From NCBI GenBank assembly GCA_034430895.1, contig DAOUDW010000038.1:2982-66981 (forward strand): DNA of 64,000 nucleotides. The letters run 5' to 3'. The position numbers and the translations under genes are program-made. Below are positions 2,973 through 60,753 of this stretch, piece by piece; the stretch's first letter is position 1, and every line of letters begins with the position of its first letter. This DNA is from Anaerolineales bacterium. GTDB lineage: Bacteria; Chloroflexota; Anaerolineae; Anaerolineales; E44-bin32. Below the pieces are notes generated by a model that had not been told where the DNA came from, did no database searches, and was given only the letters and a program-made list of their open reading frames with translations.

Positions 2973-4517
2973 ATGCTTGCAAATGTTTTGGTGGTTGAAG
3001 CAACCAAAGAATTTGGGTCCTTGATCCACAACACACTCGAAGAGACCGGGCAGTATCAAGTTGAACTGGCGATGAACGCTGCCGAGGCGATCGAGATCGG
3101 AGAACAGGGCGGTCTGCAGCTGCTGATCATCGATTTCGATCTTCCCGACCTCGATGCGCCGACCTGCATTCAACGCATCCAAAGCGCCAATCCGGGACTC
3201 GCACTTATCGCCATTCCCCCAAACAACAATCCAAACGACCCCGTGCTGTCAGGTCTTCCCATCAGCGCCTTACTCACTAAACCTTTTTACCTTCCCGAAC
3301 TCAACAGGATCGTCTCAGAAGCGATTGATCAGCCAACCAATGTCGAAAGCAGCATACAAACCGAGGATTTTAATCCGCAGGAAGAAGCGCTCACCTGGGT
3401 CTCAGGTACACCAGCCTCTTGGGCAAACGATACCCATGAAGCCTCCCAATACCTAACCCGGATTTGTCATGACATATCCGCCGAGGCTTTGATCCTTTTA
3501 TACCTCGGCCGACCATGGGCACAAGCTGGAGAGATAACGCCATCTCAAGCAGAAGAAGCTGCCACCAAGATCAATGAAATCGGTGTTGGTGATGGCACGC
3601 GTGGCGCCATCACAACCGTCACCCATATACCAGGTATGCAACTCGATTGCACACTTTACGCCAATGGCTTGCTTCAAGACTGGATCTTGGCAATGATCTA
3701 TCCGTCAGGTACCTCGTTCAGCGTGATTCGGCGCCAGGCACAGCATGCCGCGGATAGGCTCAGAGACTTCGACTCGGAAATCTACGACGAAGAACCCCTT
3801 TCCGAAACGGACTCTGTTTCCGAAACCGCTCCCATCACGCCTCCATTCCAGGCGTATGATTCACCCGATTCCTACACGGATGCGGAGCCAGAGATTCAAG
3901 AGATGCCTTTTTTAGACGGTCTCGACTTACCGCCTCCGGAACCTGAGGACGCAGCTGCTCACACCCCTGTAGAACAACCCAAAATTGTTGAGACACCTGC
4001 CGCTATTCCGGGTGACTGGGTGCCCGATAAGCCCAAACCCGAATCCCATCTGCCCTTTCTCCAAGAACGCACACCTTCACCGGCGGAACCAGCATCACCC
4101 GCCCAGGAGCACGTCCCGCTACCCGATGCGGAATACTATTTACCTGTCACTGCAGTCCTGGTGCCTCGATTCCCGGAACAGCAATTGGTCGGTGCTCTGG
4201 CCGACAATGTACACGAATGGGTTGTTCGACTCTGTTTGGCATGGGATTGGCGTGCGGATGAGGTAGTCATCGAACCCGAATACCTCTGCCTAACCATGAA
4301 CATTTCTCCAGAGACTGCGCCGTCAATCGCCATCGAGCGACTTCGGGATGATCTTTCACAACGCATACTGAGTGCCTTCCCGGAATTTGTCGAAAACCTT
4401 CCCTCCAGACGGTTTTGGGCCCGCAGTTACCTTTTAATCACCGGCGGACCACCACCTGTCGAACGAGTGCAAGCCTTCGTGCAAGGCACACGCAAGGGCC
4501 AGGGAATTGAAATCTAA
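2973..4517 (+). CDS. response-regulator receiver fused to a roadblock/LC7-like middle region, a Pro/Glu-rich linker and a degenerate IS200/Y1-transposase-like C-terminal domain
   Basis: REC motifs: LLIIDFDLPD and LLTKPF. The C-terminus follows the Y1_Tnp pattern: VLVPRFPEQ, EPEYLCLTMNISPE, RRFWARSYLLITGG and VQAFVQG. The HxH and the catalytic Tyr are replaced. Confidence 0.7.
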   Translation: MLANVLVVEATKEFGSLIHNTLEETGQYQVELAMNAAEAIEIGEQGGLQLLIIDFDLPDLDAPTCIQRIQSANPGLALIAIPPNNNPNDPVLSGLPISALLTKPFYLPELNRIVSEAIDQPTNVESSIQTEDFNPQEEALTWVSGTPASWANDTHEASQYLTRICHDISAEALILLYLGRPWAQAGEITPSQAEEAATKINEIGVGDGTRGAITTVTHIPGMQLDCTLYANGLLQDWILAMIYPSGTSFSVIRRQAQHAADRLRDFDSEIYDEEPLSETDSVSETAPITPPFQAYDSPDSYTDAEPEIQEMPFLDGLDLPPPEPEDAAAHTPVEQPKIVETPAAIPGDWVPDKPKPESHLPFLQERTPSPAEPASPAQEHVPLPDAEYYLPVTAVLVPRFPEQQLVGALADNVHEWVVRLCLAWDWRADEVVIEPEYLCLTMNISPETAPSIAIERLRDDLSQRILSAFPEFVENLPSRRFWARSYLLITGGPPPVERVQAFVQGTRKGQGIEI

Positions 4518-4593
4518 TCATCGATTTTCCCAACACTTCACACCTGGTGCTACAATTTAATACCTCACCGATTAATCCAAGGGAGTGTCCAGA

Positions 4594-7371
4594 ATGACGA
4601 ATCAACCCCGTCTGTTTCTCATCGATGGTCATGCACTTGCATACCGCACGTACTTCGCATTGACGCGTGCGGGTGATCCCTCCCGCTGGATAACGAAATC
4701 CGGTGAGCCAACCGCCGGGACTTACGGTTTCGTATCCGTACTCCTTTCGCTTCTTGAACGAGAAGAACCGGAGTATCTCGCCGTCTCCTTCGATACCGGT
4801 CGAACATTCCGTGATGATCTTTTCGATGAATACAAAGCTACGCGTGAAAAAATGCCTGATGATTTGCGTCTGCAAATCGAACGAATTCGAGAGATCATTA
4901 CGGCATTTGGAATCCCCATTCTGGAGGCCGAGGGTTTCGAAGCAGATGATGTGCTCGGTACGGTAGCTCGAAAAGCGGCATCGCAGGATGTTCACACCAT
5001 CATCGTCACCGGAGATAGAGATCTCCTGCAGCTCGTCAGTGAAAACGTGACCATCCAGCTTTCCGGCCAGAAACTCTCCGAAGCCACGGACTATGGTCCG
5101 GAACAGGTGCGCAAACGCTATGGCCTCGAACCCGGGCAGCTGGTCGATTACAAAGCTCTTGTAGGCGACAGCAGCGACAACATCCCTGGCGTACGCGGCG
5201 TTGGGGAGAAAACAGCAACTTCGCTGCTGCAACAATATAAGAATCTGGATAATATCTTCGCCAATCTGGACGATGTTCCAACACGCTTCCGCAGTAAATT
5301 GGATGATGGTAGAGAAAGTGCATATCTGAGTAAAAAGCTGGGCCAAATCGAAACGGAAGTACCGATTGAATTCGATCTCGAAGCATGCCGCGCCCAGGCA
5401 TACAATCGGGACGAAATTGTCGACCTTTTTCGAGAACTTGAATTCCGCACATTACTCAACCGCATCCAAACCGACTCATCTGGCAGTGAACAACAGATGA
5501 GTTTGTTCGTCAGCGAGGAACAAACCCAACAAACACAAACCCGAACAGTCCACATCGTCGACAACGGCGAAAAACTCGACAACCTGATCCAGCGTCTTGA
5601 CGCGGCGGAACAGATTGCTTTCGATGTCGAAACGACCAGCACAGATGCGATCCAGGCCGAGCTGGTCGGAATCTCGCTTGCTACGCAGCCCGAAGAAGGC
5701 TTTTACATCCCGGTTGGGCATATCCCAGCCAAAGAAGGATCGCAGCTCGATCTAGATACTGTGCTCGAAGCGCTGCGCGCTCCCCTAACCGATCCGAAAA
5801 AGGGCAAAGTGGGTCACAATCTCAAGTATGATTACACGCTCCTCGCTCGTCATGGGCTTCAGGTATCGCCACTCAGCTTCGACACTATGCTGGCCGAATG
5901 GCTTTGCGATCCTGCTTCCCGCAATCTTGGTTTGAAGAGTCTGGCCTGGATTCGTCTGGGCGTCGAAATGACGGACATCGAAGCCCTCATCGGTCATGGA
6001 CGGAATCAACGCTCCATGGCCGTGGTCCCAATCTCAGAAGTCGCTCCGTATGCCGCAGCCGATGCCGAAATCTGTCTGCGGCTTCTTCCCCTCCTCCGGG
6101 AAGAACTTAAGCAAAAGCAGCAAACGAAATTGTTCCAGGAGCTTGAAATGCCGCTGATCCCCATTCTGGCCAGAATGGAGATGACCGGCATCAGCCTGAA
6201 CATCGACTTTCTGGAGCAACTTTCTAAGCAGTTAAATGATCAAATGGCTAAAATCGAAGACGAGATCTTCAAAGAAGCGGGAAGAACGTTCAACGTTAAC
6301 TCAACACAACAATTATCGATCGTCCTTTTCGACGATCTATCCCTCCAGCCACCCGATCGCGCCCGTCGAACTGCATCCGGTCATTACTCCACCGCTGCAT
6401 CTGTACTTGAAGAATTACGCAGCGCCCATCCAATCGTCGAACATATCCTCGCTTACCGTGAAATCACCAAAATTAAATCAACCTATGCGGATGCCCTCCC
6501 TCAACAAGTCAATCCGCAGACCGGTCGCGTCCATACTTCCTTCAACCAGACGGGTTCGGTAACCGGCCGACTGGCGTCTTCCAATCCTAATTTACAGAAC
6601 ATACCCGTGCGGACGGAGATAGGCCGTCAAATCCGACGGGCTTTCGTCGCCGAAAAAGGTCACACGCTGCTCAGCGTGGACTACTCACAAATCGAGCTGC
6701 GTATCGTCGCCCATCTATCCGAGGACAAAGCCATGCTGCAAGCCTTTCTCGACGATCAAGATATCCACAGCGCCACGGCAGCGGCCATTTTCGGCGTCGA
6801 TCCCGCTGACGTCTCCTCCGATCTGCGTCGGCGGGCAAAAGCAATCAACTTTGGATTGATCTACGGTATGAGCCCCTTCGGATTGACCCGAACCACGGAC
6901 CTAACCCTCGCTGAAGCCAAGGATTTTGTTAAGGCATACTTCGATCGCTTCCCCGGTGTGGAAAGATATCTCGAAGAAACCCGACAACAGGCCGAACAAG
7001 TCGGTTACGTTTCAACGCTGCTTGGTCGCCGACGATACTTCCCACAGCTGACCGCAGACGCTTCGGTATCCGAACAAGCTCGCGCTCGAGCGATGCGGGA
7101 AGCGATCAACGCCCCAATCCAAGGCACGGCCTCCGACATCATCAAAATTGCCATGATTCGACTTCCTGAAGCACTAGACGAGCACAAATTGAAAGCCAAC
7201 ATGCTGATTCAAGTACACGATGAGCTCGTCCTCGAGTGTCCCCAGAGTGAACTTGCAAGTACCTCCCAGACCGTACAACAAGTCATGCAAGATGCATGTG
7301 AGTTACGTGTGCCATTGAAAACCGATGCGAAAGCGGGAACGACCTGGGCAAGCATGAAACCGATGGAATGA
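4594..7371 (+). CDS. polA: DNA polymerase I
   Basis: 5'-nuclease N-terminus LFLIDGHALAYRTYFA; 3'-5' exonuclease FDVETTS; polymerase motifs DYSQIELR, RRRAKAINFGLIYG and QVHDELV. ATG at 4594 follows GGGAG. Confidence 0.97.
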   Translation: MTNQPRLFLIDGHALAYRTYFALTRAGDPSRWITKSGEPTAGTYGFVSVLLSLLEREEPEYLAVSFDTGRTFRDDLFDEYKATREKMPDDLRLQIERIREIITAFGIPILEAEGFEADDVLGTVARKAASQDVHTIIVTGDRDLLQLVSENVTIQLSGQKLSEATDYGPEQVRKRYGLEPGQLVDYKALVGDSSDNIPGVRGVGEKTATSLLQQYKNLDNIFANLDDVPTRFRSKLDDGRESAYLSKKLGQIETEVPIEFDLEACRAQAYNRDEIVDLFRELEFRTLLNRIQTDSSGSEQQMSLFVSEEQTQQTQTRTVHIVDNGEKLDNLIQRLDAAEQIAFDVETTSTDAIQAELVGISLATQPEEGFYIPVGHIPAKEGSQLDLDTVLEALRAPLTDPKKGKVGHNLKYDYTLLARHGLQVSPLSFDTMLAEWLCDPASRNLGLKSLAWIRLGVEMTDIEALIGHGRNQRSMAVVPISEVAPYAAADAEICLRLLPLLREELKQKQQTKLFQELEMPLIPILARMEMTGISLNIDFLEQLSKQLNDQMAKIEDEIFKEAGRTFNVNSTQQLSIVLFDDLSLQPPDRARRTASGHYSTAASVLEELRSAHPIVEHILAYREITKIKSTYADALPQQVNPQTGRVHTSFNQTGSVTGRLASSNPNLQNIPVRTEIGRQIRRAFVAEKGHTLLSVDYSQIELRIVAHLSEDKAMLQAFLDDQDIHSATAAAIFGVDPADVSSDLRRRAKAINFGLIYGMSPFGLTRTTDLTLAEAKDFVKAYFDRFPGVERYLEETRQQAEQVGYVSTLLGRRRYFPQLTADASVSEQARARAMREAINAPIQGTASDIIKIAMIRLPEALDEHKLKANMLIQVHDELVLECPQSELASTSQTVQQVMQDACELRVPLKTDAKAGTTWASMKPME

Positions 7372-7501
7372 AACCTACCCGGAGTTGGATGTTTGCGAGA
7401 GCAGCAGATGGATAACGTTCTTTCCGAATCACTCAGCGACCGATGATGACTTATGCTATACTCGCCTCGCTGTAGAATTTATATAACAAGAAGATCGTGA
7501 T

Positions 7502-9856
7502 ATGACCGAACAGCAAAGCCTTTTCGAAGAATCCATGCGCTTGGGGCACTCTGCTGCCTGGGACCTAAAATGGGACCGGGCGATCGAGTTTTACCGCAAA
7601 GCCCTGGTGCAAGCGCCGGATGATCCCAATGCCCTTACCAGTTTGGGATTGGCATTGCTGGAGACCGAGCAGTATAAGGAAGCGCTCTCGGTTTATCACA
7701 AGGCTGCGAAGGTTTCCACCAACGATCCCATCCCACTCGAACGGTGTGCCGAGATCTTCGAACGTCTGGGGCAGATCAGCGATGCGGTGATACAGCGTAA
7801 CGCCGCCGCCCAACGCTACCTGGCCCGTAAAGATGCCCAGAAAGCCATCGAAAACTGGGTACACATTGCACGGCTGACGCCTGATGATCTCCACACGCGC
7901 TCCACATTGGCGGTCACGTATGAACGAACTGGAAATGCCCGCCAGGCGGTATATGAATACATCAATGTCGCCTCCATCCTGCAACGAGCCGGGAACACCG
8001 AACGCGCCATCGAAGCCGTACAACGTGCCTTACGCCTCGTCCCAGGACATCCGGAAGCAGGCAAAGCTTTACGCGCCCTCAAAGTCGGTGAAACCCTGGC
8101 GCCTCCATCACAACCACGCGGCGCAACTGCACCGCTGCGCATGGCCAAAGTCCAAGAATACATCAAGGCCGAGTCTGTAGAAAAGGAAGAAGAAGACGAT
8201 GAGGTGGCCGACCCGGAAATCGCGGCACAGCGTGATGCGCTCAAGATTTTAGCCGGCTTGCTCTTCGATGAACCAAAGGGGGATGATGATGACAAAATCG
8301 ATGACTCAGGAAATGGGTCATCCGGCCGATCCATTCTTACAGGAGGTTTAAGCCTTTCGGGCCGGAAATCCGTCGGTCAACCTCAGATGTATCGCTATCT
8401 CGGACAAGCGATCGATCTACAAACTCGCGGCAAAGATAAAGAAGCCATAAAAGAATTTGAACGGGCGATAAAGGCGGGGTTGGATCATCGCGCCGCACAT
8501 TATAACGTCGGCATCTTGTATAAAAAACAGGAAGACTATCAAGCCGCCAAAAAGAGCCTGTCCGCCGCTTTGGGTTACGCGGATTTGGATTTGGGCACCA
8601 ATCTTTCGCTCGGACGAATCGCCCGAATCGAGAAAGACCTGCCTGAAGCCGCCCGGTACTTGCTCCAGGCATTGAGAATCGCCGATTCGCTTTCTGTCGA
8701 TTCGAGCCAATCCTCTTCACTAAATCAATTTTACGATGCCATGCTCGTCTCTCAGGAAGAAGGCAATGAAGAAGAACTGGATCGCATCGTGGAAAGCACA
8801 CTCAATTTTCTGAGTGGACCAGATTGGATGCGCCGTCTACGTCAAGCACGCATGCAGTTGGAAAGTGAAGGAACGGAAAGCTCCATGGTCGTTCCTATCG
8901 CAGAAATGCTCGCCGTCGGCGGAACCGACCGTGTGCTTCAATCCCTTGGGAAAATCGACGATCTTCTCGTTCGAGAATTGTACACAGCCGCAATGGAAGA
9001 AGCGATGCTAACACTCGATCACGCCCCATCCTATCTGGCACTCCACATGAGAATGGCAGAGATCATGATCCGCAGCGGTCGCAAGGAAGCCGGACTTGAA
9101 AAAATGGGGATCGTCGCCGAAACACATCGCGTACGAGGCGAAACACCCCAAGCGGCGGATGTCTATGCAAAGATTATTCGCGAAGCTCCGATCAACATCC
9201 CGGCCAGGAACCGTTTGATCGAACTCTATATTCAACAAGATCAACACAAGGAAGCCCTGGAAAATTACTTCAACCTGGCGGAAATTTATCAACAGATGGC
9301 AGAAATCGATTCGTCCAGGAAAGCCTTAGCTGCTGCTCTCAGCCTGGCGCAGGATTCATCCGTCGACCGCGAATGGTCTGTAAAGATCTTGCGGGAAATG
9401 GGCGATATCGACCTTTCTCGCCTGGATTGGCGCCGTGCCCTACGCGTGTATTCGCAAATCCGCACCTTGGATCCACACGATGTTAAAGCACGAACGCATG
9501 TGATCGATTTGAATTTACGACTCGCCCAGGACAACCAGGCCGCTCAGGAATTGGATGGTTATCTCGAATATCTCGTCCAACATGATCGCGGCCAGGACGC
9601 CTTAACGTTCATCGAAGAACTGGCGCGTGAACATCCTGGAAAACAGATTCTTCATGAACGCCTTGCCGAGGCGTATCTCGCCGCTGGTCGTACCGCGGAT
9701 GCCATCTCACAATTCGACGCGCTGGGCGAGATCCTTCTCGATTCTGGAAATAACGACGAAGCGATTCGAACGATTGAAAGGATCATATCGCTTGGACCGC
9801 CCGATATCGAAGGCTACCAGGAACTGCTCCGCAATTTAAAGGGGGGTCAAGCGTAG
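7502..9856 (+). CDS. TPR-repeat protein
   Basis: Repeated 34-residue helical A/Y/L patterns throughout, with an acidic low-complexity insert. No catalytic motif recognised. Confidence 0.75.
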   Translation: MTEQQSLFEESMRLGHSAAWDLKWDRAIEFYRKALVQAPDDPNALTSLGLALLETEQYKEALSVYHKAAKVSTNDPIPLERCAEIFERLGQISDAVIQRNAAAQRYLARKDAQKAIENWVHIARLTPDDLHTRSTLAVTYERTGNARQAVYEYINVASILQRAGNTERAIEAVQRALRLVPGHPEAGKALRALKVGETLAPPSQPRGATAPLRMAKVQEYIKAESVEKEEEDDEVADPEIAAQRDALKILAGLLFDEPKGDDDDKIDDSGNGSSGRSILTGGLSLSGRKSVGQPQMYRYLGQAIDLQTRGKDKEAIKEFERAIKAGLDHRAAHYNVGILYKKQEDYQAAKKSLSAALGYADLDLGTNLSLGRIARIEKDLPEAARYLLQALRIADSLSVDSSQSSSLNQFYDAMLVSQEEGNEEELDRIVESTLNFLSGPDWMRRLRQARMQLESEGTESSMVVPIAEMLAVGGTDRVLQSLGKIDDLLVRELYTAAMEEAMLTLDHAPSYLALHMRMAEIMIRSGRKEAGLEKMGIVAETHRVRGETPQAADVYAKIIREAPINIPARNRLIELYIQQDQHKEALENYFNLAEIYQQMAEIDSSRKALAAALSLAQDSSVDREWSVKILREMGDIDLSRLDWRRALRVYSQIRTLDPHDVKARTHVIDLNLRLAQDNQAAQELDGYLEYLVQHDRGQDALTFIEELAREHPGKQILHERLAEAYLAAGRTADAISQFDALGEILLDSGNNDEAIRTIERIISLGPPDIEGYQELLRNLKGGQA

Positions 9857-9885: not shown

Positions 9886-10761
9886 GTGACCAATTTGATC
9901 AATGAGCTGGATTTATTCATACAACGTTTTAACTGGCTGAGCTTGATTGACATCTTACTCGTCACCATGGTGATGTTCTTGCTCTTGAGATTGATGCGTG
10001 GTACACGTGCGGAAATCCTTTTGCGCGGCATCATCCTATTGACCGTTGGGATCGCTTTAATCACGCTGGTGCTGGATTTGCCCGCATTTTCATGGCTGCT
10101 TCAAACAGTATTACCGGCATTAATCGTAGCCATTCCTGTCATTTTTGCCCCGGAAATCCGTCGTGCACTGGAACAGGTGGGGAGAGCAGGGGATTTCTTC
10201 GTTCTCGGCACACAACCCAGCGCCATCGAAAACATGATCGAAATACTCTGCGGCACGGCACAACGTCTCGCGGAACGCAGATTCGGCGCGTTAATCGTCG
10301 TCGAACGAGAAGTACCCTTGGATGAATATGTCGAAACTGGCATTCTACTCAAGGCACAATTAACCCCCGAACTACTGCTTCAGATCTTCTTTCACAACAC
10401 CCCGCTGCATGATGGTGCCGTGATTGTCCGGGACGGTCGTCTCATCGCGGCATCCTGTGTAATGCCGCTCTCCTCCAGTGGCACACTCTCAAGATCACCC
10501 ACCCATCACTTTGGCCTGCGCCATCGCGCCGCGTTGGGCATCAGCGAGGTCAGCGATTCGGTTTCCGTCGTCGTATCCGAGGAAACGGGATCAGTCTCCA
10601 TCACCCACAACGGACGCATGATCAGACGGCTGGATCAAAACCGTCTACGCAACATCCTTACCGCCTTTTTCCAACCTCGTACGACCAGTCGCCTCCCAGA
10701 CTGGCTAGATCAATGGCTCGTTCGTTTTCAACAAACAAGCAGCGAAGCCCAGGGAGATTGA
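9886..10761 (+). CDS. cdaA: diadenylate cyclase CdaA
   Basis: Three N-terminal TM helices plus DisA_N motifs GALIVVE, TPLHDGAVIV, RHRAALG and SEETGSVS. Confidence 0.9.
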   Translation: MTNLINELDLFIQRFNWLSLIDILLVTMVMFLLLRLMRGTRAEILLRGIILLTVGIALITLVLDLPAFSWLLQTVLPALIVAIPVIFAPEIRRALEQVGRAGDFFVLGTQPSAIENMIEILCGTAQRLAERRFGALIVVEREVPLDEYVETGILLKAQLTPELLLQIFFHNTPLHDGAVIVRDGRLIAASCVMPLSSSGTLSRSPTHHFGLRHRAALGISEVSDSVSVVVSEETGSVSITHNGRMIRRLDQNRLRNILTAFFQPRTTSRLPDWLDQWLVRFQQTSSEAQGD

Positions 10762-10769
10762 AGCCTTCC

Positions 10770-12017
10770 ATGTTGAAATGGCTCAAGATTAACTTCGGAA
10801 CGCTTCTCCTTTCACTGATCCTCGCGCTCACGGTCTGGTTTATCGCCGTCAATCAAGACGATCCGCGCGTCGAGCGCCTCTTGGAAGATCCGATTGAAAT
10901 TCAATATGAGGGCGTCCCAGAGGGCTATCAAATCACCAACCCGTCTGCCAATCAAGCCAGCGTAACGCTACTGACAACGCAATCGATTTGGGATGAGTTA
11001 TCCACTGAGGATATTCGTTTGGTGGCGAAAATGGAGGGACTGGATCAGGGGACATACAAGGTGCCCATCCAGTCGGCAATTTCCCGACAATTGGTTAAGG
11101 TCACCGACATCAATCCAGAATCTGTGATCGTAACCCTGGAAATCAAAGAAACAAAAGAACTGCCCATTCATGTCGTTACCCTGGGGAGCCCGGCATTGAG
11201 CTATTCTGCAGAAGAACCCCTTGCCGATCCCCAAAATGCAATTATTACCGGACCGGCATCCCTGGTGGCGCGTGTTGTCGAATTGCGCGCCCCAATCAAT
11301 CTAACCAATCGGCAGGAAAGACTGGACCAATTGGCTCCGATTATAGCTTTGGATGAAGACGGTCTTGAAGTTGATGGAGTGCAGATCTCGCCGGAGACTG
11401 TACGTGTTGAAGTGCAGATCACACAGCAGCCGAACTATCGCCTCGTCTCCGTAATCCCCAAGATCGAAGGCGAAACGGATCTGGTGGAAGCCGGCTATCT
11501 GTTTACCGAGGTAACCGTCACACCCCAATTGGTGACGATTTTTTCCTCCGACCCTCAAGCATTTGAAGACCTGCCGGGGTTCATCGAAACCGTACCTCTC
11601 AATTTGGCCGGAGCCGTGGATGATATCGAGCAGCAGCTACAGCTTAACCTGCCACCGGGCTTTTCACTCGCTTTCGAACAGAGTGTGACCGTGAAAGTCG
11701 ATATCGAACCCCGCACCAACTCGGTCACCATCAATCGGCCGTTGGATGTGCGTGGCGTCGGCGACAATCTTTACGCACTCCTATCTCCGGATGAAGTCTC
11801 GATTATTCTCACAGGTCCGGCGGCCATCCTCAACACACTGCAACCCGAAGAAATCATCGTTGTCGTCGATGTGACCGATTTAGAACCCGGAACCTACCAG
11901 ATTACACCCCAGATCATAGGTATTCCTACGGACATCGATGCCAGCGGCCCAATCCCGGCCACCATCCAGGTCACAATCAGCGCATCCCCACTACCCACAT
12001 CAAGCATAGATTCTTGA
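10770..12017 (+). CDS. cdaR: YbbR-domain protein, CdaA regulator CdaR
   Basis: N-terminal TM helix followed by repeated YbbR-like beta modules. Immediately downstream of and overlapping cdaA. Start chosen at MLKWLKINFG. Confidence 0.8.
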   Translation: MLKWLKINFGTLLLSLILALTVWFIAVNQDDPRVERLLEDPIEIQYEGVPEGYQITNPSANQASVTLLTTQSIWDELSTEDIRLVAKMEGLDQGTYKVPIQSAISRQLVKVTDINPESVIVTLEIKETKELPIHVVTLGSPALSYSAEEPLADPQNAIITGPASLVARVVELRAPINLTNRQERLDQLAPIIALDEDGLEVDGVQISPETVRVEVQITQQPNYRLVSVIPKIEGETDLVEAGYLFTEVTVTPQLVTIFSSDPQAFEDLPGFIETVPLNLAGAVDDIEQQLQLNLPPGFSLAFEQSVTVKVDIEPRTNSVTINRPLDVRGVGDNLYALLSPDEVSIILTGPAAILNTLQPEEIIVVVDVTDLEPGTYQITPQIIGIPTDIDASGPIPATIQVTISASPLPTSSIDS

Positions 12018-12023
12018 ACGCCT

Positions 12024-13394
12024 ATGTCGAAACCTGTCGTTGCCCTCGTTGGACGGCCGAACGTCGGAAAGTCCACTTTGTTCAATCGCCTTGCAGGTGA
12101 ACGCTTGGCCGTTGTGGACGACCGGCCTGGCACGACGCGCGATCGTCTCGTTGCCGAAGCAGAATGGCAAGGAATCTCATTCGACATCGTCGACACCGGC
12201 GGCATCGATCCGACCAACATCCGCCGTAGTGAACCGCTCTCCTTAGATTCCGCAGACTTTATCGAACAGATCCGCACCCAGGCTGAGTTGGCCATGCAGG
12301 ATGCGGATGCCATCATTTTCATCGTGGATGTCGAAAGCGGGGTCACACCCGCGGACGTGGAGTTAGCCGAGAGATTGCGGAAATATCAAAGCCAGCGGCG
12401 AGATCGTAAACAGCCGCCAATCCTTCTCGTGGTGAATCGCTGCGATAATGAACAGCGGCGTGGTCAAATTCACGAATTCTATGAACTCGGCATGGGCGAT
12501 CCGATTCCCATCTCTGCTTTGCATGGCACCGGCACGGGCGACATGCTGGATTCGCTCATGGACGCCTTACAAATCGTCTCCGAATTCGACGATGATGAGG
12601 ACGCTACGATAAAACTCGCCATCATCGGGCGTCCCAATGTGGGGAAATCCAGTCTGCTGAACCGCTTGCTCGGAGAAGAACGCGTGATCGTTTCCTCAAT
12701 ACCTGGAACCACACGCGACGCCATCGATACCAGGCTTACTTACTACGGCACCTCGCTTATTCTGATCGATACCGCGGGAATCCGCCGGAGAGGCAAGATT
12801 GAAAGCGGCGTGGAACGCTACTCCGTTTTACGCGCCTTAAAGGCCATCGAGCGCGCGGACGTCGTCCTACTACTCATCGACGCCACGGAAAATGTCACCG
12901 CACAGGACACCCATATCGCTGGGATGGCGATCGATAAAGCCAAAAGCGTCGTCGTTATCGTCAATAAGTGGGACGCAATCGATAAGGACGCCCATACCAT
13001 GCCTGCTTTCACCGAACACTTACGACAGGAATTGAACTTCATGGACTACGTCCCCGTTTTATTCATTTCCGCCAAGACAGGACTGCGTGTCAGTCAGGTC
13101 ATTCCAACCGCACTCCTAGTGCAGGAAGAACGCTTGCGGCGCATACCAACCGGTCAGCTGAACCGCCTTCTCAGACAAGCTCTCCACGACCACCCTCCAC
13201 CAACCCGAAAAGGGAAACGACTGCGCATTCGTTACGCAACCCAAGTTCGTACGGATCCTCCCACGTTTCTCTTTCACGTCAACGATCCCAAGCTGGTGCA
13301 CTTCAGTTACATGCGCTATCTCGAAAATTGCATCCGGGCGGAATATCAATTTACCGGAACACCTTTGCGCCTTTCCTTTCGAAGACAATCCTAA
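12024..13394 (+). CDS. der: ribosome-associated GTPase Der (EngA)
   Basis: Two G domains (GRPNVGKSTLFN and GRPNVGKSSLLN; DTGG and DTAG; NRCD and NKWD) plus a KH-like C-terminus. Confidence 0.95.
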   Translation: MSKPVVALVGRPNVGKSTLFNRLAGERLAVVDDRPGTTRDRLVAEAEWQGISFDIVDTGGIDPTNIRRSEPLSLDSADFIEQIRTQAELAMQDADAIIFIVDVESGVTPADVELAERLRKYQSQRRDRKQPPILLVVNRCDNEQRRGQIHEFYELGMGDPIPISALHGTGTGDMLDSLMDALQIVSEFDDDEDATIKLAIIGRPNVGKSSLLNRLLGEERVIVSSIPGTTRDAIDTRLTYYGTSLILIDTAGIRRRGKIESGVERYSVLRALKAIERADVVLLLIDATENVTAQDTHIAGMAIDKAKSVVVIVNKWDAIDKDAHTMPAFTEHLRQELNFMDYVPVLFISAKTGLRVSQVIPTALLVQEERLRRIPTGQLNRLLRQALHDHPPPTRKGKRLRIRYATQVRTDPPTFLFHVNDPKLVHFSYMRYLENCIRAEYQFTGTPLRLSFRRQS

Positions 13395-14327: not shown

Positions 14328-15962
14328 ATGGTTGACACGCAGGAAGAATCGACTGCGCCGCGCGTATTGGTGATCGCGGATGTCGATAGTAGTGCGGAAG
14401 CGCTCATTGATCGCGTCTTTCGCCCTGCCGGCATTGAAGCCTCTAGCTCCAACACAGATGGCCCACCGCCCGACATCCTCGTTTTCGACATCACCCAATT
14501 GCGCGGAGACCCTCTGGCAAATTTGCGTACCATGCGCGCCCAAGGTGAAGAAGCGCCGGCTATCGTTCTTGCAGCTCACTTCCCTCATTCGCGATTACGA
14601 GACATGTTCCGCCTCGGTGTTAATGATTTTCTCCTCAAACCCTATCGTCCGGAAGCTTTATGCCAGGCTGTCCGCGACATGGGGGAAAGCCGCTCTATCG
14701 AAACGAACACCAAAGTGCTGGCGAGAAGGCTGGAAGGGATGCGCGAACAATTCCGTCGCCGTTCGGAGGAAATTCGCCTTCTGAGTGAAATTGGACGTGT
14801 GGTTGTAAGTCTTGGAGATCTGGATGCAATCTTACGTCGAGTCGTAGAAGCAGCCGCATTTATGACCGACGCCGAAGAAGCCAACATCTATCTCGCTGAA
14901 TCGGGGACCAAAGAGCTGGTGCTGCGTGCCACAAAAAGCATGAACGAACGACATGCCACCTTACAGCGCTTACGAGTAGAGGACACCTTGGTAGGAGAGG
15001 TATTCACGAGCGGAGAACCGATGCTGCGCCAACCATCCCTGGAAGGTGGCCCGATCAAGGTTCAAACCGGCTTTATGGTTCAATCGCTGGCGAAAGTCCC
15101 CTTACGAGCACGCAACAGCATCGTCGGCGTGCTCGGTATTTACAACGGCATCACCCCACGTCGATTCAGCCAACACCATCTGACTCTGTTAATGGCACTC
15201 GGTCATTGGACGGGAGTAGCACTCGAATATGCCAACCTGATGCGTGAGGTAGAACACCCCATGGCATCTCAGCAGACTCTAACCGCCGTTCCCAATGATT
15301 TGATCGAGGGCCTCGACAAGTGCATTTCAATCGTCGACCCGATCGTCAACAGCCCCACTGAGGAATTGGGCAAACAGAATCGTCGAAGTCTGAACGAACT
15401 CCACAGGCATCTGCTTATGCTGCGTGCCATGCCCATGGCGACGCTTGACGTCGACGAAGCCGAAGAAATGGTCGATTTACCCGGAATTATGGAGCAAGTG
15501 CTCCGGGAAATGCGTCGCCCGGCATCACGCAGAGGCCTGGAAATCATAATTGACGAAAGCCCTCCCATGCCTTTGTTCCGCGGTGACAGCAACCGTACAC
15601 ATCGCATCATCCAAACCCTTGTCGCAGCTGCGATCCGACGCACATCGCGTGGGCGCATCATCCTGGAAGCCCACCGTGTTGAAATCCAACGAGGCCGCAG
15701 CACAAGCATTCCCATCCCAAGGCACATTCAACTGGATGATGGCTTGTGGGCGATCATGAGAATTTCAGACACAAGCCCGGGGCTTTCACCAGATACGGTT
15801 CACGCGTTGACGAAAGAAGAAATCGATCCGTCCGCCGGACAGATCGGACCAGGGCTTTCCCTGGGTGAGATTCGCATGATGCTTGAGAGCATGAAAGGCA
15901 GATTGTGGTACGAGCATACACCCGCAAGCACCACGATTGTCTTCTCTCTTCCAATAACCTAA
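14328..15962 (+). CDS. REC-like / GAF / histidine-kinase-like protein with degenerate H-box and N-box
   Basis: Receiver-like N-terminus (VLVIADVD, ILVFDI, LLKPY). GAF-like segment (LLSEIGRVV...LGDLDAILR). HATPase-like C-terminus (DTSPGL, GPGLSLGE) without a recognisable phospho-accepting His box. Confidence 0.7.
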   Translation: MVDTQEESTAPRVLVIADVDSSAEALIDRVFRPAGIEASSSNTDGPPPDILVFDITQLRGDPLANLRTMRAQGEEAPAIVLAAHFPHSRLRDMFRLGVNDFLLKPYRPEALCQAVRDMGESRSIETNTKVLARRLEGMREQFRRRSEEIRLLSEIGRVVVSLGDLDAILRRVVEAAAFMTDAEEANIYLAESGTKELVLRATKSMNERHATLQRLRVEDTLVGEVFTSGEPMLRQPSLEGGPIKVQTGFMVQSLAKVPLRARNSIVGVLGIYNGITPRRFSQHHLTLLMALGHWTGVALEYANLMREVEHPMASQQTLTAVPNDLIEGLDKCISIVDPIVNSPTEELGKQNRRSLNELHRHLLMLRAMPMATLDVDEAEEMVDLPGIMEQVLREMRRPASRRGLEIIIDESPPMPLFRGDSNRTHRIIQTLVAAAIRRTSRGRIILEAHRVEIQRGRSTSIPIPRHIQLDDGLWAIMRISDTSPGLSPDTVHALTKEEIDPSAGQIGPGLSLGEIRMMLESMKGRLWYEHTPASTTIVFSLPIT

Positions 15963-47139: not shown

Positions 47140-49209
47140 TCATGGTAGAACCTGAAATTGGTAGTACGCAGGTTGCCAGGTATAGCGTGCAGTGGCGATG
47201 ACAATCAAAATCGCTTCGTCGTATTCTTCTCCGAGCGAGAACTTAAATTGGACAGATTGGTCCTCATCCAGTGTCAGCTCACGGATGCGCGTCTCACGCC
47301 CTGCTTCGATCAATACAAGTCGATACGTCTGAGGCAGTTGATTGTAGAGACGCACGAAACCAGATGCATCCCAACCTCCATCCCCGGATTCAAAATCCGT
47401 TTGATAATCAACCGCCTCGATGGAAAGATCGTCCAACAGCAACCCTTCTCCGTTAACCGCCATGTCGGTGATGTATTCAAAACGCAGCAAGATCTCTTGT
47501 CCAGAAAACGCAGAAAGATCGACGCTTTCCCGGATCCACGCAGGGATTTTCTCACCACCACTGTAACCGGTGTATCCCAATCCGTACGAGTTACCTGTAG
47601 GATTGGTGTCCGTTCCGGACGGCGTGCTAACAAATTGCCAGGTCTCTCCACCATCCTCAGACGCCAGTAAATACAAGTAATCCCAATCCCATTCGATGTC
47701 GTACCAGACCCAATAATCGAAGGTAATATCCCCACTCACGTCCGTGAAATCAAACGCACGCGTCAACGTCATATCGGATGTATCCCCTCGATTCGACCAG
47801 AAGGCAAAATCACCTGAGTGAGGGACTTCGGGAACGATTTGAACGCTCTGCAGTCCCTCGAACTCTACCGTGTAGGTCCCCGTACAGGCAAATTGAATGT
47901 AATCAATGCCGTATTGATTGACAGTCTGAGTCTGCTCGTCGAACGGGCATTCGAAGAAGGAAGTAGCCGCCTGGGGCTTGGGTGGATCAAACGAGTGGAA
48001 GCTGAATTTGCCATCCGAAAGGTCCGGATCGTTCAACCACATTGCAGTAGCCCAGTCCGCGGACACATCATCAACGCCAATTGGCTCGCTGGTTTGTGGA
48101 TCGGAGGCGTTAATGGATTGCAGGACTTGATCGATCGAATCCAATCCATTGGCAGGATGCGCGATCACCGCCTGCGTTGTTTCTTTTCCAAAACGATCAA
48201 TGAAGTAGGTAACGAACAGAAAGGCCTGACCGTAGTGTGCGGTACTATCATCTCCGCTCGGCCAATATTCGAGCGTCTTATCAGTATTGCTTGCGAAGGT
48301 GTACTCGGCCCCACCTGTGCTGTAGCCATTCAACAGCATGGCATACTCTGAGAATCCTTCGTTCAACCAGGCGCTCTCATTGCTGTCCCGATACCAGTGG
48401 ATCATGTGCTGGAATTCGTGTGCCAGTACACCATAAGTGAACTCTTTCCATAGATGGACGTTGTCGGCGCTGATGTAAAAAATCTCGTGGGCATTTGAAT
48501 AGGGATGGACCAGGGGTGAATATTCATCAATCGAGCCATACAGTCCAGCGATACCGTAACCCAGACCACGTGCATAAAGAATGTAAATATGGACATCTCC
48601 GTCCACGCCTGGAGACCACTCCTCGCCGAAGAATTCGCGATCCGTCGGGTAAATCTCATTTTCAAACGTGTCCACGAGTTCTACAGTATCTTCATAGTCA
48701 TAATCAACACCTTCTTCAACCCAAAAGTAAGCGTGATCGGTGGCGTATGCCATTTCAGCCGTGATCTCGTAACTCTCCCCATTGTTGTTGTCCGTGATCC
48801 AGAAGGTTTCCGTCGCGCCCACCCTGATCGGTCTGGCCGCTTCGCTGAGGACATGCGGGATGTTGATGACACCTCGAAACCGTTCCGCAAGAGATCGCGG
48901 ATCGCTTTCCGGCACGATCGTCTCAGCCAAACTGTCTCGCATTTCCCACGCCAGGTCCATGTCGATATCGGCTTGCATCAAGGTCTCATACATTTTCGAT
49001 AACGACATTTCAGCGGACTTGTAACCCGCTTCGTTCGGTCGATCCGTCGCCGTGCTTTGCGTCACCAGATCAGAAGATAAAACCGCATCAAAGGCATCAT
49101 CAATAAACGAGAAAACGAAAATACTGACAGCGATGCAGAGACAAACTGTCAGTGTCGCGACCAGGCCAATGGAGAACCAAATCGCCTTTTTTTGCTCATC
49201 CGTTGACAT
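47140..49209 (-). CDS. large membrane-anchored gluzincin metallopeptidase (HEFQH ... WLNEGFSEY)
   Basis: N-terminal TM helix, then HEFQHMIHW followed by WLNEGFSEYA. C-terminal beta-rich domains. The exact MEROPS family is not assignable by eye. Confidence 0.7.
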   Translation of the reverse strand: MSTDEQKKAIWFSIGLVATLTVCLCIAVSIFVFSFIDDAFDAVLSSDLVTQSTATDRPNEAGYKSAEMSLSKMYETLMQADIDMDLAWEMRDSLAETIVPESDPRSLAERFRGVINIPHVLSEAARPIRVGATETFWITDNNNGESYEITAEMAYATDHAYFWVEEGVDYDYEDTVELVDTFENEIYPTDREFFGEEWSPGVDGDVHIYILYARGLGYGIAGLYGSIDEYSPLVHPYSNAHEIFYISADNVHLWKEFTYGVLAHEFQHMIHWYRDSNESAWLNEGFSEYAMLLNGYSTGGAEYTFASNTDKTLEYWPSGDDSTAHYGQAFLFVTYFIDRFGKETTQAVIAHPANGLDSIDQVLQSINASDPQTSEPIGVDDVSADWATAMWLNDPDLSDGKFSFHSFDPPKPQAATSFFECPFDEQTQTVNQYGIDYIQFACTGTYTVEFEGLQSVQIVPEVPHSGDFAFWSNRGDTSDMTLTRAFDFTDVSGDITFDYWVWYDIEWDWDYLYLLASEDGGETWQFVSTPSGTDTNPTGNSYGLGYTGYSGGEKIPAWIRESVDLSAFSGQEILLRFEYITDMAVNGEGLLLDDLSIEAVDYQTDFESGDGGWDASGFVRLYNQLPQTYRLVLIEAGRETRIRELTLDEDQSVQFKFSLGEEYDEAILIVIATARYTWQPAYYQFQVLP

Positions 49210-49249
49210 CAACATACTCCCCAAGCTTGGTATTCAGGATTATATCGGA

Positions 49250-50689
49250 TTATCGCAGCTGGCGACGGGCGAGGGTTTTGTCATCCGAACGAGCGATCGG
49301 AAGCTGGACGGTAAAGCGGCTGCCCCGGCCTGGCGAACTCTGCGCAACGAGTCGGCCGCCGTGCATCTGCACGATCTCGCGCGAAATCGCCAGGCCCAGC
49401 CCCGCGCCGCGCTTCTTTCCTGCCGAGCGTGCCTTCTCCAACTGATAAAAACGCTCAAAAATGCGGGAGAGTTCCTCTGACGGGATCCCTGCGCCCTGGT
49501 CATCGACATGAATCGATACCCAACCGTTCTCCTGATCTGCACAGATCGTCACTTCACCGCCTACTGGTGAATGGGTGATGGCATTGTCAATCAGATTGGT
49601 AAACACCTGCGCCAGCCGATCGCCGTCTCCGATAATGGTCGGCAGCGTCGGCAATTCATTCGACAATTCAACATTACCTTCCAGCGCACGGATTTCCAGC
49701 CGGTTCAGTATGCTCTCAATGAGCTCCACCAGCTGCACCGCTTCGCGATTGAAATCCACCTGCCGCGCATCGAGCCGTGCCAGATCCAGCAGATCTTCGA
49801 CCAAACGCCGCAGGCGATCAGATTCATCGAAAATCACCTGCGCCGCATGCTCGATGTTTGCACGGTCTTCCGCCGTCCCGTCCAATATGGCCTGTGCAAA
49901 TCCCTGAATCGAAGTCAGCGGCGTTTTCAATTCGTGGGATACATTGGCCACGAAATCCCGCTGCGCTCGCCGACTGAGCTGGACGCGTTGGACCATGTCG
50001 TTGAAGGCAACCGCCATGCTCTCCGCTTCGATCGGTCCGAGGGGTTCGATGCGCTGCTCGTAATCGCCCGCAGCAACTGCGCGGGCCGCTCCGGCCGCTT
50101 TACTCCACGGTGCAGCGACCCAGCGGGCGACCAACCAGGCGAGCAGCGCCGAGACAATCAAGGCCAGAATCCCCGTACGCAGGAGCGGCCGGATCAATTC
50201 ATCCCCCCATGTTGAAAACCGCCGCAGCGTGGTTGAAGGTGTGGCCATGATAACCCAACGATTGTTGGGAATACGGGCAGAAACGAAGATCCACGAGCCG
50301 GAAAGCAGGCCCCCGAATCTGCCCTGCTCTGTTGAATCACTCGCAATAATCAGCTCACGCACATCTTCCGGCATGGTTAGTGCTTCCGGGCGGCTGTCGG
50401 CAACAGCGTTTCCCGCATCGTCGAGGATCAAGAGCCGAACGTCAGCTTGTTCATCAATACGCTGTAGAAAAGCGGTCAAGCGATCAGAGGACAGATCCGC
50501 CAGCACATTTCGCTCCCGCAGTTCGAATGCGCTGCGAAAGACGTTCAATCGGCGGTATTCCAGACGTTCGAGATTATTGAACGTAACGTAAACCAAACTC
50601 AAAATCACCGGGGTCACGATCACCCCGGCGAACATTAAAAAGGTAAGAAACAAACGGGAACGCAGGGATCGAAGCACGCAACTACTCAC
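49250..50689 (-). CDS. sensor histidine kinase (TM-sensor-TM, HAMP, HisKA, HATPase_c)
   Basis: H-box SHELKTPLTSI, N-box NLIDNAITHS, DDQGAGI and GAGLGLAISREIV. Confidence 0.9.
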   Translation of the reverse strand: MSSCVLRSLRSRLFLTFLMFAGVIVTPVILSLVYVTFNNLERLEYRRLNVFRSAFELRERNVLADLSSDRLTAFLQRIDEQADVRLLILDDAGNAVADSRPEALTMPEDVRELIIASDSTEQGRFGGLLSGSWIFVSARIPNNRWVIMATPSTTLRRFSTWGDELIRPLLRTGILALIVSALLAWLVARWVAAPWSKAAGAARAVAAGDYEQRIEPLGPIEAESMAVAFNDMVQRVQLSRRAQRDFVANVSHELKTPLTSIQGFAQAILDGTAEDRANIEHAAQVIFDESDRLRRLVEDLLDLARLDARQVDFNREAVQLVELIESILNRLEIRALEGNVELSNELPTLPTIIGDGDRLAQVFTNLIDNAITHSPVGGEVTICADQENGWVSIHVDDQGAGIPSEELSRIFERFYQLEKARSAGKKRGAGLGLAISREIVQMHGGRLVAQSSPGRGSRFTVQLPIARSDDKTLARRQLR

Positions 50690-51365
50690 ACACCAATTTG
50701 TAGCCCACGCCCGTCACCGTCTCAATGCGTACGTTCTTGCTGTTCGACAACCGTTTGCGCAGGTTGGCAACGTGCACATCCACGGTGCGCGTTTGGCCGT
50801 AGAAGTCGAAGCCCCACACCAATTCCAGCAGTTGCTCGCGTGTGAGTACGATACTGCGGTGCTCACAGAAAGTCAGCAGCAGATCGAATTCCTTCGTACG
50901 CAGATTGACCATTTCCCCGTCAACGCGAACCTCCCGACTGGCCGGATCGATGGACAAGTCGCCAAGATCCAGGGGAGTTGTATCTTCACGCGGAGTTCGC
51001 TCCATGCGGCGCAGGATCGTCTTCACGCGTGCCACCAGTTCGCGCGGGTTGAAGGGTTTGGTCATGTAATCGTCGGCGCCCAGCTCCAGACCGACGATCT
51101 TGTCCACGTCATCGTCGCGGGCGGTGAGCATGATAATGGGCACTTCCGATTCCGCCCGCACGCGCTGGCAGACTTCGAATCCGTCAATCTCGGGCAGCAT
51201 AATGTCCAGGACGATCAGATCGGGTTTCTGCTGCTTGATTTCCTGCAACGCTTGTACGCCGTCGCTCGCCTCACAGACCTGGAACCCATCGCGTTCTAAA
51301 TACATGCGTGCCAGATCGACAATGTTGGCTTCGTCGTCGACGACCAGGATCTTCTCACCTGCCAT
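50682..51365 (-). CDS. OmpR-family DNA-binding response regulator
   Basis: ILVVDDE, LIVLDIMLPEIDG, MTKPF, and a winged-helix C-terminus with GVGYKL. Overlaps the kinase start. Confidence 0.93.
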   Translation of the reverse strand: MAGEKILVVDDEANIVDLARMYLERDGFQVCEASDGVQALQEIKQQKPDLIVLDIMLPEIDGFEVCQRVRAESEVPIIMLTARDDDVDKIVGLELGADDYMTKPFNPRELVARVKTILRRMERTPREDTTPLDLGDLSIDPASREVRVDGEMVNLRTKEFDLLLTFCEHRSIVLTREQLLELVWGFDFYGQTRTVDVHVANLRKRLSNSKNVRIETVTGVGYKLVCE

Positions 51366-51514
51366 CGGGTTCACTCCATGGATGAAGTAGGAACAGCTTT
51401 CCGTGTAGCATACTATTCCCCCTGCGGAAACGAAAGGTTACATTATCACCAATTCGAAGGATTGGATTGCGGGCTGATTTCCCTGAGCTCTCATACAAGC
51501 GTGAGTCGAATCCA

Positions 51515-60671: not shown

Positions 60672-60747
60672 TGGTGGACCCAGTGGGATTCGAACCCACG
60701 ACCTCCTCAATGCCATTGAGGCGCGCTCCCAACTGCGCCATGGGCCC
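60672..60747 (-). tRNA. tRNA-Ala (anticodon GGC), CCA encoded
   Basis: Hand-folded 76-nt cloverleaf: acceptor GGGCCCA/TGGGTCC with G3:U70, anticodon loop AUGGCAU, T-arm GTGGGTTCGAATCCCAC. Confidence 0.93.
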
Positions 60748-60753
60748 TTAGTG

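Follow-up and report, generated by a model that had tools for sequence, protein, structure and literature searches.

Introduction

TnpA, the transposase of IS200/IS605 elements, represents subclass 1.1 of the Y1 HUH enzymes in the classification of Quentin et al. 2018 (PMC6006769), in which all Y1 family members share a HuH/Y core and the key-motif table gives HuH, W and Y for the subclasses shown. It is a stand-alone protein of ~150 amino acids (aa), and the elements that encode it have subterminal hairpin ends, often carry tnpB and occur in multiple copies. Y1 domains have also been retained by their hosts, as in RAYT (TnpA-REP) proteins, which are single-copy and vertically inherited (PMC2817692, PMC8266576), keep the HUH motif and the Tyr, and are flanked by REP hairpins (PMC6006769). 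Here we describe a gene that likewise carries a host-kept, single-copy Y1 domain, in this case without the catalytic residues. It lies directly upstream of polA in a 64,000-nucleotide (nt) stretch from an Anaerolineales bacterium (GenBank assembly GCA_034430895.1, contig DAOUDW010000038.1, positions 2,982 to 66,981; hereafter the window) and encodes a protein of 514 aa from an ATG start. Here the TnpA-like domain is the C-terminal domain of proteins that are mostly 500-800 aa long, no insertion sequence ends are present, and the neighbours are polA and N_BRCA1_IG genes (Table 1).

The N-terminal half of the protein has described relatives as well. Fusions between a Response_reg and a Robl_LC7 domain are a known architecture (PMC4316618). 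The Roadblock protein MglB is the GTPase-activating protein of the small GTPase MglA, and the middle domain of the window protein is like MglB both by profile (E=4e-5) and by fold. RomR of Myxococcus xanthus, a partner of MglA, MglB and MglC, consists of a receiver at the N-terminus and, after it, a long low-complexity region rich in Pro and acidic residues (a Pro-rich linker and a Glu-rich tail). The likeness to RomR, which works with Roadblock proteins, is a resemblance only: the protein described here has its Roadblock domain within one and the same chain and ends in a folded TnpA-like domain, and its gene lies beside polA rather than among genes for motility or polarity. Finally, the receiver is like atypical or pseudo-receivers, an assignment made from residues only, in that the fold is kept with an incomplete active site in which the Asp and Lys remain.

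RAYTs, in contrast, are not fused to a receiver or a Roadblock domain, and the terms 'receiver' and 'response regulator' are absent from the main text of PMC6006769. The literature searched contained no receiver-Roadblock protein with a TnpA-like domain, no description of the receiver, Roadblock and dead Y1 architecture, and no description of the linkage of such a gene to polA and a tetratricopeptide repeat (TPR) gene. Nor did it yield a published account of an inactivated HUH domain in a receiver protein, in line with the novelty proposed when the gene was first picked out from its letters alone (the sequence-only reading). The recruitment of a dead TnpA domain into a signalling-type protein therefore appears to be undescribed.

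The C-terminal domain descends from IS200/IS605 TnpA

Pfam assigned the C-terminal domain to Y1_Tnp (PF01797, 'Transposase IS200 like'), with a match from aa 393 to 504 that covers positions 8-119 of the 121-position model. The whole protein scored 38.2 bits (E=1.8e-9), above the gathering cut-off of 23, and the isolated C-terminal domain matched at E=9.8e-11. The sequence-only reading had aligned four blocks of the domain with TnpA, and all four were reproduced in the HMMER alignments. The best NCBIfam model was the equivalog transpos_IS200 (39.9 bits for the whole protein and 44 for the domain alone, both below its cut-off of 55). In a single-sequence search of PDB sequences, TnpA from Sulfolobus and from Deinococcus matched at E=2e-5 to 3e-4. 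When a profile built from 16 family members was used instead, 2ec2 (2e-14), 2f4f (5e-14), ISDra2 2xo6 (4e-13) and IS608 2a6m (6e-6) were matched over the whole domain.

The structural model agreed with these searches. AlphaFold predicted aa 388-510 at a predicted local distance difference test score (pLDDT) of ~90, with the order β-α-β-β-α-α-β-α, which is the ferredoxin-like core of the TnpA fold. In Foldseek searches against the PDB, ranks 1-21 were exclusively TnpA structures (IS200, IS608 and ISDra2) with target TM-scores of 0.72-0.82, and 2fyx superposed on the domain with a root-mean-square deviation (rmsd) of 2.2 Å over 119 columns. The HUH fold anticipated by the sequence-only reading is thus present in the model. 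Comparison with 2ec2, 2f4f, 2fyx, 2xm3 and 2a6m showed the same fold and secondary-structure order, with a match that spans the whole ~120-aa core and with retention of the Trp block ('FWA' versus 'lWs'), the β1 'P-[KR]-[YF]' block and the helix that bears the Tyr in TnpA. The domain is nearer to IS200-type TnpA than to RAYT, as both its best matches (IS200-type and ISDra2/IS608 TnpA) and its best NCBIfam model show. We conclude that it descends from IS200/IS605 TnpA.

The catalytic residues are lost and the domain is under strong constraint

The roles of the HUH His pair, the Tyr and the Gln in Y1 enzymes are summarised in PMC6006769. In the window protein, both metal-binding His residues, the nucleophilic Tyr and the Gln ligand are all replaced, by Y437 and C439, F502 and T506, respectively. 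The extent of this loss was determined by aligning 186 family members to the hidden Markov model (HMM) of the domain and counting the residues in each column. The first His column is mostly Tyr (Y138, H14, F10, R9), and the second is most often Gln (Q91, C25, L13, R11, A10, E10, H10). The Tyr column contains Phe in 149 members and Tyr in 37, and the Gln column contains Thr in 167, with Gln not among the listed residues. HUH, Tyr and Gln did not occur together in any member (0/186). A single member has H-x-H (H-L-H), but with Phe at the Tyr site, and the 37 members with Tyr carry Y-L-Q or similar instead of HUH. An alternative alignment that would restore catalysis was considered and rejected: Pfam, phmmer and the family profile share one register, and no His pair plus Tyr is found in the 186 members. 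The loss of catalysis noticed from the single sequence (Y-x-C at the HUH site, Phe at the Tyr site) thus extends to the family.

In place of Y-x-x-x-Q, the family has its own signature, [FY]-I-x-x-T-R-x-x-Q-G, in which R507 is found in 186/186 members, Q510 in 185/186 and T506 in 167/186. P398, R399, F481, W482, R507 and Q510 are invariant or almost so, and G511, R427 and R464 are nearly invariant; H403 is present in 175/186 members, and the window protein has Gln there. Thus, the TnpA domain was recruited with loss of the Mg-binding His pair, the Tyr and the Gln ligand, and of the HuH, W and Y motifs of Y1 enzymes the dead-Y1 family retains the Trp alone. Since it lacks the catalytic hallmarks by which these enzymes are defined, it should be classified neither with the transposases nor with the RAYTs.

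Despite this loss, the Y1 domain is the best-conserved region of the protein. Compared with five orthologs that are 63-90% identical overall, it showed 80-95% identity and a ratio of nonsynonymous to synonymous substitution rates (dN/dS) of 0.07-0.15, as against 0.18-0.30 for the receiver, 0.07-0.21 for the Roadblock domain and 0.17-0.49 for the long linker. Such strong purifying selection rules out a decaying remnant.

The N-terminal half combines an atypical receiver with a Roadblock domain

An AlphaFold2 model on an alignment of 23 sequences resolved the protein into three folded domains and two disordered linkers, with a net charge of -51 for the whole. At the N-terminus, Pfam Response_reg (PF00072) matched aa 5-112 with 36.7 bits (cut-off 30.2), and Foldseek aligned the domain to Spo0F and other receivers at an rmsd of ~2 Å, which bears out the CheY-like receiver seen by the sequence-only reading. 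Its active site was examined by aligning 136 family members with CheY and Spo0F. The acceptor Asp (CheY D57, window D54) is Asp in 131/136 members, and the position of CheY K109 (window K103) is Lys in 98 and Arg in 28. In contrast, the positions of the Mg-binding acidic pair have degenerated: CheY D12 corresponds to E9 in the window and to T59, D43, E16 and S11 in the family, and CheY D13 to A10 and to P50, A35, S26 and E10, so that the first position is acidic in 59/136 and the second in 10/136. The position of CheY T87 (window P82) is Pro in 107 members and Ser in 7, and never Thr. In receivers, the Mg2+ on which phosphotransfer depends is bound with the help of D13, and T87 links the phosphorylated state to the output. 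With neither the Mg-binding acidic pair nor the Thr/Ser switch in place, a conventional phospho-switch is doubtful, although another metal site is conceivable, since the acidic residues D56 and D59 just past the acceptor Asp are also conserved.

The description of the protein as phospho-regulated in the sequence-only reading fares poorly for the same reasons, with E9 and A10 in place of the Mg pair and P82 in place of the switch residue, and no kinase gene was found among the conserved neighbours. A complete kinase-regulator pair occurs just once in the window (a HAMP-HisKA kinase and an OmpR-type regulator), 45 kb away, and its two genes are each other's partners. At 14328-15962 (+), some 10 kb downstream of the dead-Y1 gene, the window also encodes a kinase-like protein of 544 aa with a partial, weak receiver match, GAF and HATPase_c, in which HisKA was not matched at E<=1e-5.

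The middle domain, modelled alone, reached a pLDDT of 88.3 and has the order α-β-β-α-β-β-β-α of the Roadblock fold. The top 50 Foldseek matches were all Roadblock domains (MglB, p14/MP1, LAMTOR and the C-terminal domains of Rag proteins), and a profile of 30 middle-domain sequences matched eight MglB sequences of the PDB at E=4e-5 to 1e-3. The Pfam model Robl_LC7 gave no match to the window domain above threshold and a weak match in 2/30 members. Both profile and fold thus support the MglB-like Roadblock/LC7 region that had been suspected from its hydrophobic pattern. With the full-length model, Foldseek aligned Gtr1p-Gtr2p over ~340 columns of receiver plus Roadblock, so the pair resembles the layout of a G-domain followed by a Roadblock domain. 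No MglA-like GTPase was found in the conserved trio of genes or among the scanned window genes, in which the GTPases are Der/EngA and a dynamin-like protein.

Conserved motifs within a disordered linker

The two linkers differ in length. The first is short and poorly conserved (23-31% identity with orthologs that are 63-67% identical overall). The second, between the Roadblock and Y1 domains, consists in the window of 21% Pro and 23% Asp plus Glu, has a net charge of -24 and is predicted to be disordered, so that both composition and pLDDT agree with the long Pro/Glu-rich linker described from the sequence. In the family it varies from 77 to 441 aa (median 158) and is rich in Pro, Glu and Ala. 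Two linear motifs within it are conserved nonetheless (Table 1). The strict pattern [LV]PPP[DE]P is present in 81/134 full-length members, the most distant ones included, and PxDWxP in 63/134, often in two copies. Conserved linear motifs within a disordered linker suggest docking of a partner. TPR arrays bind short peptides, and by this analogy the co-encoded TPR array described below is a natural candidate for the docking partner.

The family is confined to Chloroflexota in the recovered loci and is often misnamed

A word-indexed search yielded 44 homolog clusters, nearly all with Response_reg plus Y1_Tnp, 500-600 aa long and from metagenome-assembled genomes (MAGs) of Anaerolineales/Chloroflexi. 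An exhaustive profile search of 1.84 billion representatives expanded the family to 389 clusters (50% identity) at E<=1e-30, with proteins mostly of 500-800 aa and with the domain always at the extreme C-terminus. Our own domain HMMs detected all three domains in 134/186 sequences, and most of the others appear truncated. The phyletic survey proposed by the sequence-only reading gave a uniform result: all 28 of the 28 loci recovered from one-genome-per-species GTDB contigs are from Chloroflexota, all of them MAGs, labelled Anaerolineales, Anaerolineaceae, Anaerolineae, Chloroflexi/Chloroflexota and, for two, Chloroflexia.

In public databases, members go under the names 'response regulator', 'CheY-like', 'transposase' or 'RayT'. 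The fragments P0197, P0200, P0203, P0268 and P0273 and many JGI entries are called 'IS200/IS605 family transposase, partial' or 'REP element-mobilizing transposase RayT', names that are misleading because the catalytic residues are absent. Most of the other short Y1 matches are fragments from contigs of <3 kb. Two apparently stand-alone dead-Y1 genes on contigs of >180 kb, P0225 and P0281, were rejected as frameshift artefacts, as polA is broken into three or four pieces on those contigs and short unannotated open reading frames (ORFs) lie just upstream. In the loci L034 and L035 (ENA ERZ25039462 and ERZ25039471; 181-216 kb), frameshifts occur throughout, with polA in 3-4 pieces and the TPR gene in 2, and give rise to spurious stand-alone Y1_Tnp entries in protein databases.

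The gene is fixed in front of polA and an all-TPR gene

The sequence-only reading had placed the gene directly upstream of polA and asked for a survey of synteny. In the window, polA follows after a short spacer (Table 1), and in 34/35 loci it is directly downstream on the same strand. A gene for a protein of ~775 aa, in which TPR-type Pfam families are the sole matches and no catalytic domain was found by Pfam, comes after polA in every locus with a contig long enough. The adjacency to polA is kept down to 27-30% identity of the dead-Y1 protein and 55% of PolA. The outer flanks change: in closer relatives the trio lies between two N_BRCA1_IG genes on the upstream side and DAC-YbbR-Der on the downstream side, whereas in distant relatives it is preceded by Rho and an M23 peptidase and followed by unrelated genes.

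In 8 loci just 5-10 nt separate the gene from polA, which implies co-transcription; in most of the others the spacer is ~50-115 nt long. TGnTAcAAT recurs in the spacers of L001, L003, L006-L009, L012, L016, L017 and L026, which suggests a promoter of polA's own. This -10-like sequence was the only element to recur; neither an operator-like sequence nor a hairpin proved to be conserved in the spacers to polA. In L015 the spacer is 393 nt long (7412-7804) and forms a very stable long hairpin (-202 kcal/mol) with a near-perfect inverted repeat of ~20 nt, CTGGAGGGTCGGGGGAGC...GCTCCCCCGACCCTCCAG, and may be an inserted palindromic element. In Chloroflexi bacterium RBG_16_51_16 (L033), a full-length member of 486 aa (5912-7372) is followed at 7449-8414 by a gene for an Mrr_N/Mrr_cat restriction endonuclease-like protein.

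The window contains one copy of the dead-Y1 gene, and neither flanking inverted repeats nor REP-like repeats were found at the gene. The inverted-repeat search of the flanks thus upheld the absence of transposon ends seen by the sequence-only reading. RAYTs keep HUH and Tyr and have REP hairpins at their flanks; the dead-Y1 gene lacks the catalytic residues, and no REP-like repeats were found in its flanks or in the 64-kb window. Taken together, these results identify the gene as a lineage-specific, single-copy cellular gene of Anaerolineae (Chloroflexota), in which the new elements, a dead Y1 domain added to a receiver-Roadblock protein and the linkage to polA and the TPR gene, appear to be undescribed for a host-recruited Y1 transposase domain.

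Table 1. Features of the dead-Y1 gene and of the two genes that follow it (positions in the window)
Feature	Position	Strand	Evidence
Whole gene: atypical receiver, Roadblock/LC7, disordered linker and catalytically dead TnpA-like domain	2973..4517	+	ORF, Pfam, AlphaFold, homolog clusters
Receiver (REC), atypical, aa 1-120	2973..3332	+	PF00072; pLDDT 83-92; residues of 136 members
Disordered linker 1, short, aa 121-146	3333..3410	+	pLDDT <50
Roadblock/LC7 (MglB-like) domain, aa 147-266	3411..3770	+	Profile, AlphaFold, Foldseek
Disordered linker 2, long, acidic, Pro/Glu-rich, aa 267-386	3771..4130	+	pLDDT <50; composition
Linker motif FLDGLDLPPPEP, aa 313-324; family pattern [LV]PPP[DE]P after hydrophobic residues	3909..3944	+	(Nearly) invariant Pro columns in family alignment
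Second linker motif IPGDWVPDKPKPESHLPFL, aa 345-363, core PxDWxP	4005..4061	+	Consensus 'IPxDWxPxxPxPxSHLPFL' in family alignment
Catalytically dead IS200/IS605 TnpA-like (Y1 HUH fold) domain, aa 387-514	4131..4514	+	Pfam, profile, Foldseek, dN/dS
Former HUH site P-E-Y437-L-C439-L-T, opposite TnpA P-D-H-I-H-L-F	4275..4295	+	HMMER alignments
Former catalytic-Tyr helix A-F502-V-Q-G-T506-R-K-G-Q-G, opposite K-Y-I-E-E-Q	4473..4505	+	HMMER alignments
Spacer to polA, 67 nt, with extended -10-like TGCTACAAT at 4548-4556	4518..4584	+	No terminator-like site found
polA, DNA polymerase I, 928 aa	4585..7371	+	ORF; 5_3_exonuc_N, 5_3_exonuc, DNA_pol_A_exo1 and DNA_pol_A on orthologs
All-TPR protein, 784 aa, third gene of the trio	7502..9856	+	TPR-type Pfam families the sole matches

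Other genes and repeats of the window were also recorded. Directly upstream of the dead-Y1 gene lie tandem paralogs of 402 and 381 aa (130-1338 and 1675-2820, both +), which are 74-79% identical in DNA over their repeated parts; both encode a signal/lipobox-like 'LSACNFPG' at the N-terminus, a linker rich in Thr and Pro, and a domain of the N_BRCA1_IG (NBR1-like Ig) type. This pair is also found upstream in closer relatives (L001, L003, L006-L011 and others), not in distant ones. Directly after the TPR gene, at 9886-13394 (+), follow DAC (a CdaA-like diadenylate cyclase), a YbbR-domain protein and Der/EngA, again in closer relatives only. Farther away, two tandem tRNA-Ala genes (GGC and CGC) that are 5 nt apart and 85% identical occupy 60672-60826 (-), and a family of 26-nt direct repeats (TGCCAGGTTACCCCGCCATCTTCAGT-like; 4 copies, 73-100% identical) extends over 47636-53140 within large minus-strand genes for an InhA-like MAM protein and an FGE-sulfatase/BNR protein, where it is probably a repeated protein motif.

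Discussion

We are highly confident of the facts described above on the gene, its fold, the lost catalysis, the constraint, the fusion and the fixed gene order. A tentative mechanism, to which we give a probability of roughly 0.4, is that the dead TnpA domain serves as a binder of ssDNA (single-stranded DNA) hairpins within a non-enzymatic adaptor for Pol I and the TPR protein. The adaptor would probably be dimeric; TnpA, Roadblock and receiver domains dimerise in known relatives. By analogy with active TnpA, the dead domain would be a binding module that most likely grips folded ssDNA (hairpins) by its structure and without cutting, and the bound hairpin DNA would be marked or held for Pol I. 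The linker motifs may dock onto the TPR protein, again by analogy, and the receiver-Roadblock module would contribute assembly or regulation. Regulation by the receiver would probably be independent of phosphorylation because its metal-binding pocket is degenerate. The reading is coherent with what is known of related systems: TnpA recognises hairpins by shape via Arg-phosphate contacts (bioRxiv 10.1101/2024.12.22.630000), IS608 and ISDra2 act on the lagging-strand template (PMC6006769), and in E. coli REP hairpins bind DNA polymerase I (PMC2817692). On the same side stand residues that the family keeps, with R399, R507 and Q510 invariant and R427 and R464 nearly so.

Several observations weigh against this mechanism. 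The Y1 domain of the window protein is acidic (net charge -5, isoelectric point (pI) 4.9), which does not favour ssDNA or hairpin binding, and its charge varies within the family (pI 4.5-10.7; the archaeal TnpAs compared have a pI of 9.3). Basic charge as a sign of DNA binding was therefore discarded, being absent in the window protein and unconserved in the family. No conserved hairpin was found beside the gene in the spacers to polA, and no repeated hairpin element or REP-like family in the 64-kb window. With the promoter-like TGnTAcAAT in many loci, adjacency need not mean a single transcript everywhere, and the divergent member of L033 is the sole locus without adjacent polA. A conserved β-clamp-binding motif is also missing: QL[SD]LF had 0 matches, and looser β-clamp patterns match only inside the folded Y1 domain, with none in the linkers or the tail.

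The main rival, which we rate slightly below DNA binding and consider possible, if on the unlikely side, is a purely protein-binding or dimerising role, in which the dead TnpA domain contacts no nucleic acid and the protein is a Roadblock-type scaffold, serving for example the TPR protein or a small GTPase. The adjacency to polA would then reflect shared expression or inherited order, not shared biochemistry. The acidity of both the domain and the whole protein in the window and the unconserved charge fit this role, as does the failure to find a hairpin ligand nearby, in the spacers or the 64-kb window. TnpA is an obligate dimer with a merged β-sheet (PMC3597680), so the fold is a ready-made dimeriser; Roadblock domains are platform or dimerisation modules in MglB, Ragulator and Rag GTPases, the structures matched here; and the alternation of Phe and Tyr at the former nucleophile position suggests a role in packing. 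However, if the domain did no more than dimerise, one would not expect it to be constrained more strongly than every other region of its protein (dN/dS 0.07-0.15) or to carry invariant residues of surface type, among them R399, R507 and Q510, and the polA trio is kept while both outer flanks change, with 5-10 nt spacers in 8 loci. The last point also speaks to a further alternative, that the place before polA is a frozen accident of gene order in one class and that the protein acts in an unrelated process. Because all loci are from one phylum and mostly from one class, they do not count as independent observations; moreover, a promoter-like element of polA's own is often present, and one divergent member is elsewhere in its genome. 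Yet the adjacency has outlasted divergence to 27-30% identity (55% for PolA) despite replaced outer flanks, and the 5-10 nt spacers in 8 loci indicate an operon, which makes such an accident improbable.

More improbable still is what the sequence-only reading implied, a response regulator switched by phosphorylation, with the HUH domain as a non-cutting DNA-binding output that might regulate, for instance, transcription of the polA operon. The gene is directly upstream of polA, its receiver scores above the Pfam cut-off, the acceptor Asp is present in 131/136 members and Lys/Arg in 126/136, and the conserved D56 and D59 could in principle form another metal site. These features are countered by Mg-binding positions that are acidic in 59/136 and 10/136, a switch position that is Pro in 107/136 and never Thr, the lack of a conserved operator-like element in the spacers, and the lack of a kinase in the conserved neighbourhood, the complete pair of the window being 45 kb away and self-partnered. 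A fusion of other domains to a transposase or nuclease of the ordinary, active IS200/IS605 or RAYT type, or a decaying remnant of such an enzyme, would agree with the public names and with the Pfam Y1_Tnp match. It is effectively refuted by residue loss, the fixed locus and purifying selection: HUH, Tyr and Gln are absent here and never found together in 186 members, the NCBIfam IS200 equivalog scores 39.9-44 bits against a cut-off of 55, and the gene has no transposon ends or REP repeats, a single copy in the window and a fixed chromosomal position.

An extended form of the ssDNA-hairpin reading, which we regard as doubtful, is that the dead TnpA domain, taken over from an IS200/IS605 transposase with relatives that act on the lagging-strand template, senses folded ssDNA by its structure and, with its operon partners Pol I and the TPR protein, makes up a new, lineage-specific accessory module of replication or repair, the assembly of which is gated by the receiver-Roadblock head. 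In that case it would be the first example of a Y1 HUH domain recruited by a host without its catalysis.

The finding matters for annotation, as misnamed fragments would inflate mobile-element counts for Anaerolineae metagenomes, Anaerolineales in particular. It also marks a different course of domestication: RAYT domestication keeps the enzyme active, whereas the dead-Y1 family keeps the fold and drops the chemistry, and constrains the domain more strongly than the remainder of the protein. The family amounts to several hundred sequence clusters in a major environmental phylum. To our knowledge, Pol I is usually regarded as acting without dedicated partners; the near-invariant place of the dead-Y1 gene before polA and the all-TPR gene suggests a lineage-specific accessory of Pol I.

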